Below, one piece after another: positions 13,574 to 63,844 of a stretch of 64,000 nt of DNA. Position numbers and translations under genes: made by a program. The notes under the pieces are model-generated. The model worked only from the letters and a program-made list of their open reading frames with translations. It searched no databases and was not told the origin of the DNA. Source of the DNA: Micavibrio sp. (GTDB taxonomy: Bacteria; Pseudomonadota; Alphaproteobacteria; UBA9219); the NCBI GenBank assembly GCA_020718105.1, contig DYDA01000004.1:6124-70123 (forward strand), read 5' to 3'. Each line of letters starts with the position of its first letter. Within the stretch, counting starts at the first letter, position 1.

Positions 13574-16558
13574 ATGTTAAATGTTCTTGATCATATCGTG
13601 GCGGCGGTTCTTGTCGCGGCGCGGCAACCGATTGAATCCTTCATTCGTCTTGAAACGGCGCAAGATGGCACAACGCTGGTGGCTGATGACGGCTCTTTGA
13701 TGTCGATCGTCCAGATTCATGGCTCGCGGCAAATTATCGGGGACGCCGAATACCAATGGATCGTTGAGCAGGCAACCACGAAGCTTGGCGCTCGGTTTGA
13801 TCGCCCTGGGTATGCGCTTCAGGTTTATTTTATGCGTGACCCCCATATGGCGGGAAGCGATTTGATCAACGCGATGAAAAGCAATCGTGCCGCCGCCCAA
13901 ATGGCGGGGTTGGATCTTGAGGATTTGCTTGATGAGCGGCAGCGCCACCTTTCTCAATATCTGGCGCATGAGGAGGTTTATTTCGTTTTGTGGACGCGCC
14001 CCAAAGCGGTCAGCGCGATGGAGATTAAGGAAGCTGTGCGCCTTCGGGCTGAACAAAAGTGGGTTGTTGCCGAGGATGCGCAGCATCCCTTTGCCGCGCT
14101 TGGCCCCCTTGTTTCGCGGCATAAGGGGTATGTGTCAGGGATCGTTTCGGTTCTTGAGGATCTGTCGATTAAAGCCAGCGTGGCTTCGGTCCATCAATCG
14201 CTTGCCGCGATTAGGGCGAGTTTGTATCCCACGTTGAGCCATGACGACTGGAAGGCCAATGTGCCCGGCGATGTGATCACGCCCCATACGTCAACAGAGC
14301 CCACCGATGCGTCCGAGGTTTTGTGGCCGCCTTTGCGGCGTCAGATTTGTACGGGCGACGCTGAAATTATTAAGCCCACCATCGTGCGGATTGGGGACTT
14401 ATGTTGGGGCGGCGTTGATATGACGTTGGGGCCTGCGGATCCCGCGCCTTTCCCGCAGCTGCTTGCGCGCATGATCAACGACGATATGCCTTTCCATCTT
14501 TCAATTTTGATTGAAAGCGCGGGAACGGATGGATCGGCGTTCCGTACGTTTTTGGCTGCTGTTTTGGCCTTTACGAACGAAGTCAACCGGCAGATTCGTG
14601 AATCGCTTAAAGCGCTTCAAGAATTGTCGCAAAGCGAGCCTGTTGTGCGGTTGCGCATTTCGCTTTCCACGTATGCGCCTTCGCGCGAGGTTAAATTGGT
14701 TGAAACGCGCCTTGCTTCGTTGACGCAAGCGCTAGAGGCTTGGGGCTATTGTCAGGGGTCGTCGTCGGGCGGGGATCCGTTAGAGATGACCCTTTCATCG
14801 GCGCTGGGTCTTGGGTGCGCTTCAACCGCGCCGCCCGCTCTTGCGCCGTTTCGTGATGTTCTCAAGCTGTTGCCTTGGCAGCGGGCATCCTCGCCGTTTA
14901 AAGAAGGCTCGGTTGTTTTTCGCACCTCTGATGGGCGCATTTGGCCCTATCAGACGGGCAGTTCTTTGACGACAACGTGGTTTGATTTGATTTTTGCGCA
15001 ACCTGGCTCTGGTAAGTCGGTTTTGATGAACGCGCTTAATTTGGGAACCATTTTGTCGGCGGGCATTACGCGCCTTCCCTATATTGCGATTTTGGACATC
15101 GGCCCTTCCTCGGCGGGATTGATTGCTTTGATTCGCGATGCTTTGCCGCTTGAGCGACGCCATGAGGCGATGCACTTTAAATTGAAGATGGCGCCTGAAT
15201 TTGCGGTCAATCCTTTCGATACGCAATTAGGATGTCGCTATCCTTTGCCGGAAGAGCGCTCTTATTTGACAGAGCTCCTTACGTTGCTGTGCACGGCGCC
15301 TGGACAAGTTACGCCGTATGACGGCATGGCGCAGCTTGTGGGTCTTTGCGTGGACGAGATGTATCGTTGGCGCGATGATAAGGGGGCGAACACTGAGCCT
15401 CGGCCCTATCTTTTAAATATGGAGCCGGATGTTGATGAAGCGCTTAAAAAATATAACCTTCATCTCCCTGTCGATCCTTATTGGTGGGATGTTGTTGATG
15501 CGTTGTATGAGGTGGGGGCTTATCACGAATGTATGCTGGCGCAGCGGCATGCCGTTCCGACGCTTGTGGATGCCGTGACATCAGCGCGGCGGCCACAAAT
15601 TCGCGCCCTGTTAGAGGAAACGTCGATTGGTTCTTCGGCGGAGTCTATCATTCATGCGTTTGATCGTATGATCGCATCAGCCGTTCGCGAGTTCCCGATT
15701 TTGGCCTCTATCACGCGCTTCGATATTGGCACAACGCGCATTGCGGCGGTTGACTTGCAAGACGTCGCGCCTCAAGGCGATGATGCGGCCGATCGTCAAA
15801 CGGCGGTTATGTATATGTTGGCGCGCCATGTTCTTATTCGCGCTTGGTGGTTGGGGCCGGATTCCATTCGGCTTATGCCGGAGAAATATCGCCCTTATCA
15901 TGAGGAGCGATTCCGCGATATTCGTGAATCGCCCAAGCGGCTGTGTTTTGATGAGTTCCATCGCACGAGTAAGACGGCGGCGGTTCGTGCGCAGGTCGTG
16001 CGTGATATGCGCGAAGGGCGTAAGTGGGGCGTTCAAATCGTTTTGGCCTCTCAGTTGTTGGAAGATTTCAGCAACGATATGGTCGATATGGCGACGGGCG
16101 TTTGGGTTTGCGGTACGGCCGTTTCTGAACGCGCCATTAATGAAACGGCGGAACGCTTTGGCCTTTCGGATACAGCGCGTTGGGTGATGCGTTATCGTTT
16201 GACAGGACCGCGTCCCAGTGGTGCGCCCGTTCTCCTTCTTCTTAGCACCAATGAAGGGCGGTATGAACAGCACTTGATCAACACGCTTGGCCCTATTGAG
16301 TTGTGGGCGCTTTCAACCTCGCGGGAAGACGTTGATCTTCGCACGGCACTTTATACATCCCTTGGGGGGCCTTTGGCGCGGCGCGTTTTGGCGCGGTTCT
16401 TCCCTAGCGGATCGGCAAGGCAAGAAATCCGGCGGCGGGTCGTTCAACGGACGGAGTCGGGAAAAGTCGAATCTGCCGGAACAAACGTGGTTATCGCTGA
16501 ATTGGCGGATGAGCTTATTAAAACCGTTCGGGAAACGTTGCTCAAGGAACAAGCCTAA
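13574..16558 (+). CDS. IcmB/DotO-like (TraU-like) type IVB secretion ATPase
   Basis: 994 aa, the size of Legionella IcmB (1009 aa). Central Walker A FAQPGSGKSVLMNA and Walker B LCFDEFH. The N-terminal TADDGSL-type motif is recognised from memory of IcmB/TraU proteins. Other Dot/Icm genes are present in the window. Confidence 0.6.
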   Translation: MLNVLDHIVAAVLVAARQPIESFIRLETAQDGTTLVADDGSLMSIVQIHGSRQIIGDAEYQWIVEQATTKLGARFDRPGYALQVYFMRDPHMAGSDLINAMKSNRAAAQMAGLDLEDLLDERQRHLSQYLAHEEVYFVLWTRPKAVSAMEIKEAVRLRAEQKWVVAEDAQHPFAALGPLVSRHKGYVSGIVSVLEDLSIKASVASVHQSLAAIRASLYPTLSHDDWKANVPGDVITPHTSTEPTDASEVLWPPLRRQICTGDAEIIKPTIVRIGDLCWGGVDMTLGPADPAPFPQLLARMINDDMPFHLSILIESAGTDGSAFRTFLAAVLAFTNEVNRQIRESLKALQELSQSEPVVRLRISLSTYAPSREVKLVETRLASLTQALEAWGYCQGSSSGGDPLEMTLSSALGLGCASTAPPALAPFRDVLKLLPWQRASSPFKEGSVVFRTSDGRIWPYQTGSSLTTTWFDLIFAQPGSGKSVLMNALNLGTILSAGITRLPYIAILDIGPSSAGLIALIRDALPLERRHEAMHFKLKMAPEFAVNPFDTQLGCRYPLPEERSYLTELLTLLCTAPGQVTPYDGMAQLVGLCVDEMYRWRDDKGANTEPRPYLLNMEPDVDEALKKYNLHLPVDPYWWDVVDALYEVGAYHECMLAQRHAVPTLVDAVTSARRPQIRALLEETSIGSSAESIIHAFDRMIASAVREFPILASITRFDIGTTRIAAVDLQDVAPQGDDAADRQTAVMYMLARHVLIRAWWLGPDSIRLMPEKYRPYHEERFRDIRESPKRLCFDEFHRTSKTAAVRAQVVRDMREGRKWGVQIVLASQLLEDFSNDMVDMATGVWVCGTAVSERAINETAERFGLSDTARWVMRYRLTGPRPSGAPVLLLLSTNEGRYEQHLINTLGPIELWALSTSREDVDLRTALYTSLGGPLARRVLARFFPSGSARQEIRRRVVQRTESGKVESAGTNVVIAELADELIKTVRETLLKEQA

Positions 16559-16728
16559 TAAAAACAAAGCGGTGGGGGTTGTTTCATGGGGTGTCTTTAT
16601 CGCAAGGCGGGCGGAAAAAACAGGCCAATGACAGAGCCCTTAACCAAAGAAGAGGGTTGGTTGCTTGGGGGAGATATCGTATATTCCAAGATTGGTTTGT
16701 GTTAGGATTTTAACGGGATAAAAAAGAA

Positions 16729-63538: not shown

Positions 63539-63577
63539 AAAAGGGGGGGCTGCTCTTGCCCCTCAAGGGAGAAAAGA

Positions 63578-63844
63578 ATGGATATTCATTGGAGAAACAC
63601 ACAGAAGCCCGTTCGCTTTCTTTTTCTTGATGCGCGCGCGTTTTTTGGCATTATTCTTTTTCTCGTTCATGCCAGAACGTGGGTGTTTGTTCTTGTTTGT
63701 TTCTATATTTTTATGTTTTGGATGTTTGAAAAACGAGGGTTGTCTTTTGAAGCGGCTTTGCGAGCGATTCGTTGTTGGTTGTTGGGGCGTCGTCGCCCCG
63801 CCAATAGTCGTCGTGCGATTCGTCATATGGTCGATTTTTCGTGA
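63578..63844 (+). CDS. IcmT/TraK-like small inner-membrane protein (tentative)
   Basis: 88 aa (IcmT is 86 aa). N-terminal motif HWRNTQKPVRFLFLDARAFF resembles the HWR...R.F..DAR motif remembered for IcmT/TraK. Two TM helices. GGGAGAAAAG RBS. Confidence 0.4.
   Translation: MDIHWRNTQKPVRFLFLDARAFFGIILFLVHARTWVFVLVCFYIFMFWMFEKRGLSFEAALRAIRCWLLGRRRPANSRRAIRHMVDFS

Follow-up and report, generated by a model that had tools for sequence, protein, structure and literature searches.

A chromosomal Dot/Icm-family type IVB secretion system with a linked type IVb pilus in an uncultured Micavibrionales-like alphaproteobacterium

In reviews, the type IVB secretion system (T4BSS) figures as a hallmark of intracellular, deep-branching Gammaproteobacteria (PMC11338181, PMC8896642). 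What, then, is such a system doing in the chromosome of an alphaproteobacterium, where does it come from and on which cells may it act? The question is raised by a 64,000-nucleotide stretch of Micavibrio sp. DNA (GenBank assembly GCA_020718105.1, contig DYDA01000004.1, positions 6,124 to 70,123; hereafter the window), in which an earlier note, made from the letters alone, had recognised Dot/Icm homologs in three loci. We find that the window carries a genuine, chromosomal Dot/Icm-type (type IVB) secretion system, which confirms this observation. We further consider it probable, if well short of certain, that this is the vertically inherited Dot/Icm-family T4BSS of an uncultured Micavibrionales-like alphaproteobacterium and that it serves as a contact-dependent protein translocator, most likely into bacterial prey.

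A Dot/Icm-type structural core

The 50 open reading frames (ORFs) of the window, which make up 93% of its 64 kb, were screened with Pfam and NCBIfam. The genes of the core and the ORF that lies among them are as follows (TM, transmembrane segment; values are E-values unless stated otherwise).

13574-16558, plus strand: IcmB/DotO, VirB4-class ATPase; 43% identity over the full length (994 aa) to Legionella IcmB, 27% to IncI1 TraU; its matches are named IcmB
16729-17955, plus strand: DotM/IcmP, membrane protein of the coupling complex; PF23127 DotM_C 8.7e-41; NF033890 2.2e-47, below cut-off
17990-18556, plus strand: 188-aa single-TM ORF between dotM and dotL; no Pfam or NCBIfam family; same place in relatives L002-L008, L010 and L093
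18607-21036, plus strand: DotL/IcmO, type IV coupling protein; NF041447 TrbC (TrbC_conju) 7.9e-111; TraG-D_C; TrwB; Walker A GTTGSGKT
36429-37061, plus strand: DotI/IcmL; PF11393 2.2e-42; NF038072 1.3e-43
37037-37834, plus strand: DotI paralog (DotJ/IcmL.2-like); PF11393 9.6e-31; 30% identity to DotI
37997-39142, plus strand: DotH/IcmK, outer-membrane core; PF12293 1.3e-69
39132-40631, plus strand: DotG/IcmE, short form with a TrbI domain; NF033900 1.7e-47, 162 bits versus 91 bits for TraO; PF03743
40826-42103, plus strand: DotF-position protein; single TM and coiled coil; assigned from position and topology only
42255-43235, plus strand: DotE/IcmC (TraQ-like); NF033883 TraQ 2.3e-12; phmmer to IcmC 1.8e-15
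43360-43827, plus strand: DotP/IcmD; recognised solely by phmmer, 4e-12 to Legionellales IcmD
43840-44538, plus strand: DotN/IcmJ; NF038221 2.6e-16, below cut-off; phmmer 9e-17
60941-61450, plus strand: DotD lipoprotein; PF16816 3.9e-26; NF033882 1.4e-27; lipobox LVAGC
61428-62300, plus strand: DotC (TraI-family); PF16932 5.3e-71
62279-63538, plus strand: DotB ATPase; TIGR02524 2.7e-118, 395 bits versus 241 bits for TraJ; Walker A GPTGSGKT
63578-63844, plus strand: IcmT/TraK; NF038220 9.1e-24, above cut-off

The homologs that the earlier note had listed are therefore real, since these profile searches recover them where they had been placed, with IcmB and DotP recognised by alignment or phmmer. 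In the Pfam scan, IcmB gave zero domains; its Walker A motif (PGSGKS) is identical to that of Legionella, and the Walker A motifs are intact in all three ATPases (IcmB, DotB and DotL). DotF is the homolog for which the proposal held in part: the protein has the right position and single-TM topology, and searches of Pfam, NCBIfam and the PDB gave no family, the PDB matches being noise. The order icmL-K-E-G-C-D-J between 36.4 and 44.5 kb and the overlapping dotD-C-B genes are as they had been described. The DotM gene, in contrast, does not directly precede the DotL gene as had been claimed, since the conserved 188-aa ORF intervenes; DotK/IcmN was considered as an identity for this ORF and ruled out, because the protein has neither an OmpA domain nor a lipobox.

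Two of the core proteins differ in size from what their families would predict. DotG has 499 aa, compared with about 1000 positions in the DotG/IcmE model. DotE has 326 aa, about 150 aa beyond TraQ, and its extra N-terminal half is 32% identical to DotP, such that the protein looks like a tandem fusion of DotP and DotE. In the locus of one relative (L008), dotP is present as two separate copies.

Altogether, the full structural core is encoded: the envelope components DotC, DotD, DotH and DotG with the DotF-position protein; the inner-membrane set of DotI, its paralog, DotE, DotP and IcmT; and the ATPases IcmB, DotB and DotL together with DotM and DotN, of which DotL, DotM and DotN form the coupling complex. 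An IcmB-type ATPase, an outer-membrane core, a coupling complex with DotB and inner-membrane parts, by which a type IVB core is recognised, are thus all found.

Since T4BSSs also include the transfer systems of IncI plasmids, the core was compared with both. Where paired NCBIfam or Pfam models exist, the Dot/Icm model beats the IncI1 model for DotB, DotG, DotI, DotD and DotM, and in phmmer searches the Legionellales proteins outscore those of IncI1 for every core part tested against both (for DotL, 1e-125 to Rickettsiella DotL versus 1.5e-57 to IncI1 TrbC).

Ancestry and inheritance of the locus

The position of the system was estimated from 84 IcmB/TraU sequences in a tree built by neighbour-joining only (100 bootstraps, rooted on IncI1 TraU). 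The clade of the window was recovered in 100% of replicates, as were a second alphaproteobacterial clade and the gammaproteobacterial Dot/Icm clade; the two alphaproteobacterial clades grouped together in 81%, and IncI1 and Burkholderia TraU stood apart from all others in 100% of replicates. The system is thus a deep sister lineage of the Legionellales Dot/Icm systems, far from IncI1 plasmids. A recent transfer from Legionellales was rejected, as the window clade is sister to theirs and not nested within it, and so was an IncI plasmid insertion.

The second alphaproteobacterial clade (L089, L016, L013 and L078), whose IcmB proteins are 43-44% identical to that of the window, includes a Stappiaceae chromosome. 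L089 is NC_012811.1, the megaplasmid of Methylorubrum extorquens AM1, which MOB-suite types as MPF_I and non-mobilizable; on it, about 18 kb separate the genes of IcmB and DotL, which lie on opposite strands, and a 43-kb stretch gave no match to any further T4BSS gene of the window.

Several features of the surroundings bear on how long the system has resided here. The domain scans confirmed that housekeeping genes lie between the clusters: a PAS histidine kinase, tsaE, addB/addA, a GT4 glycosyltransferase, pta, ackA, flgL/K/E, lexA, comEC, gltX, groES/EL and trmL. In two relatives (L005 and L007), icmB, dotM, the ORF, dotL, the GT4 gene, pta and ackA are arranged as in the window, and T4BSS and Pta/AckA have diverged similarly from those of the window (55-78% identity for the T4BSS proteins, 78-81% for the neighbouring Pta and AckA). 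GC skew keeps one polarity across the window and dips only where groESL and trmL sit on the opposite strand. These conserved flanks, the similar divergence and the uniform skew point to long vertical residence; an ancient residence had been proposed from the gene context. No relaxase or integrase domain was found in the 50 window genes by the Pfam and NCBIfam scans, and the window contains no tRNA gene, as had also been noted; none of the three was found in the fetched T4BSS loci of relatives either. An integrated conjugative island was rejected, in view of the integrase, tRNA and relaxase missing from the window and of the conserved flanks.

The three loci of the window are real as well, yet the split turns out to be specific to this lineage, since two relatives (L008 and L093) keep one unbroken block: dotI, its paralog, dotH, dotG, dotF, dotE, dotP, dotN and icmB, followed by dotM, the homolog of the 188-aa ORF, dotL, a GT4 gene and a Wzy_C gene. 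From icmL to icmB, this is the order found in Legionella, extended by dotM and dotL. Loci 1 and 2 of the window are hence a lineage-specific split of an ancestrally contiguous locus, and housekeeping blocks divide the once-contiguous locus into three pieces in this genome.

Such scattering might also be expected of a decaying, non-functional remnant of an ancient acquisition that rearrangements have dispersed, and unrecognisable DotA and IcmX, as well as a GC content at third codon positions (GC3) below that of the neighbours, would agree with it. Against decay, the ORFs are all full length, the ATPase motifs are intact, the order is kept within the pieces, the ATPases and DotC are 70-95% identical to those of relatives, IcmB is found in at least 120 clusters, and 'icmO' is transcribed in M. 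aeruginosavorus (PMC3189940). We therefore give this explanation almost no credence.

The accessory operon and the linked pilus

The block between 49.4 and 60.8 kb, on which the earlier note had offered no interpretation, is a conserved part of the system: it belongs to an operon of about 14 kb that is common to four metagenomic relatives (L083, L084, L086 and L088), whose DotC is 72-76% identical to that of the window, and dotD, dotC, dotB and icmT close it. Ahead of these four genes, the window has the following.

49467-49946, plus strand: start of the operon; 159-aa exported protein with signal peptide and 6 Cys, probably a lipoprotein; no family; homolog detected only in L084
49953-51245, plus strand: 430-aa exported protein; weak IagB-like N-terminus (0.011); conserved in L083, L084, L086 and L088
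51271-51948, plus strand: exported protein of 225 aa, paralogous to the C-terminal domain of the 430-aa protein (41% over 120 aa)
51915-53537, 53534-54922, 55006-56559 and 56572-57990, plus strand: four secreted, cysteine-rich paralogs in tandem; length about 450-540 aa, 10-16 Cys per protein
58163-59020, plus strand: 285-aa all-helical protein, probably cytoplasmic; neither signal peptide nor TM; 55-67% identity in relatives
59022-59477, plus strand: specialised lytic transglycosylase (TrbN/IagB-like); NF010463 TrbN 4.8e-22; IagB 4.6e-13; 70-80% identity in relatives
59484-60539, plus strand: DsbC/DsbG-like periplasmic thiol:disulfide isomerase; NF008657 DsbG 1.2e-21; Thioredoxin_2 and DsbC_N; IncI1 TrbB at only E=0.01
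60553-60837, plus strand: 94-aa membrane protein with a C-terminal TM; no known family; position conserved, 36-46% identity

The cysteine-rich proteins are an orphan family. Searches of Pfam, NCBIfam and the PDB by phmmer and profile gave no match; a hidden Markov model of the family, run against every ORF of the IncI1, Burkholderia and Legionellales loci, found nothing, and the hhalign comparison of the family with TraW was null. Only 154 clusters at 50% identity belong to the family among 1.84 billion representatives. An AlphaFold2 model built from 14 sequences reached a pLDDT of 63.5 overall and of about 70-89 for the C-terminal 260 residues, and Foldseek found nothing significant for it in the PDB. 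Whether this family is IcmX-like is a lead that we hold as quite possible, leaning slightly away from it. A recent tandem duplication in the lineage of the window is suggested by its four copies, compared with three in the relatives, and by the 45% identity between the first two (51915-54922). The co-encoded Dsb protein plausibly serves these cysteine-rich accessory proteins. For the 285-aa protein, no family was found and PDB matches were at noise level; its single-sequence AlphaFold2 model was unusable (pLDDT 45).

Between the window and the relatives' operons, the exported accessory proteins are 25-37% identical and vary between three and four in copy number, compared with 70-82% identity for the ATPases. 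The exported proteins are thus the fastest-evolving, with a pace several times that of the core, which is the pattern expected of parts that contact a target.

Beyond the window, the operon leads into a pilus. A 4.4-kb contig of the same organism (L082, 2175-4355) encodes a PilL-like protein with a TcpQ domain and a secretin directly after icmT, and the operon of relatives (L083, 12717-20797), in which the secretin is PilN, continues with PilO, a protein in the position of PilP, a PilQ-type ATPase and a PilR-type platform protein. In L083, L086 and L088, these pilus genes are colinear with and homologous to PilN/O/P/Q/R of IncI1 (PilN 2e-46, PilQ 1e-54, PilR 2e-38). An IncI/R64-type type IVb pilus operon, seen in its PilL-R part, hence adjoins icmT in the DNA of the same organism. 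The thin pilus of R64 (IncI) binds bacterial recipients and mediates attachment in liquid matings.

This pilus revives the question of DNA transfer, in that the locus might be a chromosomally fixed IncI-like DNA-transfer system, or the remnant of an integrated conjugative element, with its relaxase and oriT outside the window. The adjacent R64-type thin-pilus operon, the TrbN-like transglycosylase, a Dsb protein that resembles TrbB, and TrbC and TraQ as the best named matches of DotL and DotE all lend it some weight, and relaxases do occur elsewhere in Micavibrio genomes, on integrative and conjugative elements (PMC3189940). The contrast that the earlier note drew between an effector system and a conjugative island is blurred by the pilus and the transglycosylase. 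Beside dotL, where IncI1 has NikA/NikB and oriT, five genomes have the GT4 gene followed by pta or Wzy_C, and neither the window nor the T4BSS loci of relatives contain a relaxase, NikA, integrase, tRNA or exclusion gene. Likewise, phmmer found no homolog of the IncI-specific TraE/F, TraV/W/X/Y or ExcA. The locus, whose housekeeping flanks are conserved, seems to be inherited vertically; the identity of its IcmB is 27% with TraU versus 43% with the IcmB of Dot/Icm systems; and the genes lie in three pieces, yet all are intact and conserved, which is unexpected for a mobile element. We thus consider a DNA-transfer role quite improbable.

Three neighbouring genes recur close to the T4BSS genes in several loci.

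21040-22071, plus strand: GT4 glycosyltransferase directly after dotL; PF00534 3.7e-37; same in L005, L007, L008 and L093
35862-36362, plus strand: GcrA-like small Zn-ribbon protein upstream of dotI; weak GcrA matches (1e-3 to 1e-4); C-terminal CxxC...CxxC
48133-49356, plus strand: Wzy_C membrane protein (O-antigen-ligase/O-oligosaccharyltransferase-like), heading the third locus; PF04932 9.6e-15

In L008 (17458-19888) and L093 (17777-21008), the Wzy_C gene comes after the GT4 gene, with a GT25 gene intervening in L093. The two enzymes may glycosylate the pilin or exposed T4BSS proteins, or their presence may reflect old synteny with lipopolysaccharide genes. Homologs of the GcrA-like protein are encoded upstream of dotI in L008 (865-1272) and near icmB in the unrelated Stappiaceae locus L016 (20304-20858), and L093 has a 187-aa ORF at the same position; this protein may be a dedicated regulator. 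Just after ackA, a 90-aa membrane protein (24927-25199) carries a precomputed Pfam match to PF26604 (CBU_0592, named after a Coxiella gene), and its gene overlaps the end of that of a 490-aa protein with a methyltransferase-regulatory domain.

Possible targets and known systems

The organism itself can be placed through its closest matches. The IcmB of the window has 68-100% identity to each of the best 120 listed IcmB clusters (at 90% identity), which come from uncultured Alphaproteobacteria, and the closest species representative among those listed is a metagenome-assembled genome (MAG) labelled Micavibrio aeruginosavorus, with 95% identity in IcmB. MFA6279452.1 and MFA6279427.1, which fall in the clusters (at least 90% identity) of the window's IcmB and GroEL, respectively, and whose accession numbers differ by 25, are encoded on one 520-kb contig labelled Bdellovibrionales bacterium, and other close IcmB and GroEL matches bear the same label. 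Alphaproteobacterial MAGs are so labelled because NCBI files Micavibrio under Bdellovibrionales. M. aeruginosavorus ARL-13 is not among the best 120 IcmB or GroEL matches, and the organism would best be termed Micavibrionales-like, not Micavibrio proper. The host- or amoeba-associated lifestyle that the earlier note had thought probable found no support: the lineage is not known to be associated with amoebae and groups with MAGs labelled Micavibrio or Bdellovibrionales. Flagella, comEC, AddAB and pta-ackA in the context fit a free-swimming cell.

For cultured Micavibrio, the text of the genome paper states that no type IV secretion system is present (PMC3189940). Additional file 4 of the same paper nevertheless lists GMV_383 of ARL-13 as 'icmO' (2583 nt), expressed with a GEI of 4.3 during attack and of 3.5 during attachment (the columns being ordered as GMV_92 implies), such that the statement looks like an annotation oversight. 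The genes next to GMV_383 are hypothetical ones with lengths of 582 and 1215 nt (GMV_383-385), the sizes of the 188-aa ORF and dotM, and the hypothetical gene GMV_1708 has 2994 nt, the modal length of IcmB (PMC3189940). These matches, which compare lengths and names, are suggestive of T4BSS genes in ARL-13; no DotB-sized 'type II/IV secretion' gene is recognisable by name in the gene table (PMC3189940).

What might the machine do? We know of no established mechanism by which Micavibrio kills and drains its prey from the outside. In the mechanism that we propose, the machine would translocate proteins upon contact. The target cell would be contacted by the type IVb pilus, perhaps together with the cysteine-rich proteins that evolve so fast, the transglycosylase would open the predator's own peptidoglycan for assembly, and the Dsb protein would fold the disulfide-rich exposed parts. 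Substrates would be recruited by DotL, DotM and DotN and driven by the ATPases through the DotC/D/H/G channel. The likeliest target would be bacterial prey rather than a eukaryote, because the Micavibrio in culture live by obligate epibiotic predation on Gram-negative bacteria (PMC3189940). More tentatively, the T4BSS and the IncI-type thin pilus may together form the prey-attack apparatus of Micavibrio-type epibiotic predators, injecting proteins into bacteria, with disulfide-rich exposed proteins, possibly IcmX analogues, in place of the canonical DotA and IcmX; it might then be an intermediate between IncI conjugation and the Legionellales translocators.

An effector system aimed at eukaryotic hosts such as protists, as in Legionellales, with a host-associated lineage, is close to what the earlier note had in mind. 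It would fit the sister position to Legionellales/Coxiellaceae systems, the lineage-wide conservation, which resembles that in obligate host-dependent gammaproteobacteria, and the literature that ties T4BSSs to intracellular bacteria (PMC11338181, PMC8896642); most of the clade is uncultured, which leaves room for such a lifestyle. Yet bacteria are the prey of the only relatives in culture (PMC3189940), the searches recognised none of the accessories specialised for eukaryotes (IcmS/W, IcmQ/R and IcmF/DotU), the linked pilus belongs to the IncI thin-pilus type, the domain scans found no eukaryote-like domain in the window proteins, and the gene context is that of a free-swimming cell. We therefore regard this alternative as rather unlikely.

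A number of observations weigh against a protein translocator of predatory Micavibrionales. DotA/TraY and IcmX/TraW count as components common to all T4BSSs. Within the window and the T4BSS loci of relatives, no DotA/TraY homolog was found with phmmer searches using TraY or with NCBIfam on candidates, and IcmX/TraW was not recognised by sequence; both may be encoded elsewhere in the genome, or the machine may differ. Searches with Legionella ORFs gave no match in the window for IcmF, DotU or DotK, and the NCBIfam and Pfam scans, by which alone these were covered, revealed no IcmS, IcmW, LvgA or IcmQ/R among the window ORFs. The earlier note had likewise failed to recognise DotA, IcmX, IcmV, IcmW, IcmS, IcmQ and IcmF. 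Curated membership in Dot/Icm in the strict sense does not extend to this system, because IcmT alone clears its NCBIfam equivalog threshold (83 vs 40 bits), with DotB (395 bits for a cut-off of 463), DotM (162/230), DotI (149/175), DotD (97/140), DotN (60/100) and DotG (162/750) all falling below theirs. The IncI-like traits, namely the thin pilus, the TrbN-like transglycosylase and the TrbC and TraQ matches, are compatible with a DNA-transfer ancestry, and GC3 is about 0.50 (0.43-0.57) in the T4BSS genes (36-44 and 49-64 kb) compared with about 0.60 (0.55-0.66) in their neighbours. Regarding the host, the taxonomic placement follows the submitters' labels on MAGs, the window holds no 16S rRNA gene, and no cultured Micavibrio is found among the best 120 GroEL matches, which reach down to 81% identity. 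Finally, no substrate, effector or translocation signal was identified; the translocator function is what we infer from homology and from the lifestyle of relatives, and this uncultured lineage is presumed to be predatory.

That an alphaproteobacterial T4BSS would be noteworthy had been an attraction of the locus. The system is genuine, yet such a system on an alphaproteobacterial chromosome has been recorded before, if only in passing: NCBI annotation names these proteins IcmB, and the second clade includes the AM1 megaplasmid. The TXSScan survey of Needham et al. 2022 (Nat Microbiol, PMC9418006) reported pT4SSi in seven marine Micavibrionales, a relaxase-less Dot/Icm-type system that is probably the same as that of the window; it was given as a count only, and gene content, operon, pilus linkage, phylogeny and role in predation were not described (PMC9418006). 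The models named there, which cover Dot/Icm and IncI systems, are T4SS_typeI and pT4SSi, and not the T4SS_typeB model that had been proposed as a check. New here are the placement in a Micavibrionales-like, presumably predatory lineage, the ancestral single locus, the sister-clade position, the conserved orphan accessory operon with its possible IcmX-like family, the linkage to an IncI-type pilus and the apparent lack of DotA, IcmX and the Legionellales adaptors. In the nomenclature of TXSScan, typeB designates the Bacteroidetes-type T4SS.

If the proposed role were true, a T4BSS that aims protein effectors at bacteria would be shown for the first time. The machine would also offer a concrete, genetically testable candidate for the mechanism of epibiotic predation and break the textbook tie of Dot/Icm to intracellular life in eukaryotes. 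Whatever its function, a deep sister lineage that keeps an IncI thin pilus bears on the origin of effector translocators from conjugation systems, and the orphan family of cysteine-rich proteins may represent a new, exposed T4BSS component.

Three known systems offer a comparison. The X-T4SS of Xanthomonas, Stenotrophomonas and Lysobacter (type IVA; in PMC12428579), by which toxic proteins enter rival or prey bacteria upon contact, is a functional analogy; it is of the VirB/D4 type with XVIPCD-tagged effectors and an architecture unrelated to Dot/Icm, and no effector/immunity pairs were identified here. From the MPF_I system of IncI1 (R64/ColIb-P9), the locus differs in that NikA/NikB, oriT, ExcA, TraV/W/X/Y, TraE/F and a shufflon were not seen, in the 27% identity of the VirB4-class ATPase and in its chromosomal, vertical inheritance. 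It shares with IncI1 the counterparts of TraH, I, J, K, M, N, O, Q, T, U and TrbA, C, the linked PilL-N-O-P-Q-R thin-pilus operon, and a Dsb-like protein and a specialised transglycosylase among the transfer genes. Compared with the Dot/Icm systems of Legionella and Coxiella, IcmS, IcmW, LvgA, IcmQ, IcmR, IcmF, DotU, DotK, DotA and IcmX were not recognised here, and the short DotG, the DotE with its DotP-like half, the private accessory operon, GT4/Wzy_C and the type IVb pilus set the locus apart. With those same systems, it shares DotC, D, H, G, (F), I, a second DotI-family protein, E, P, N, O, B, L, M and IcmT, the icmL-K-E-G-C-D-J(-B) order, the dotD-C-B module, the absence of an adjacent relaxase, and a chromosomal and lineage-wide occurrence.

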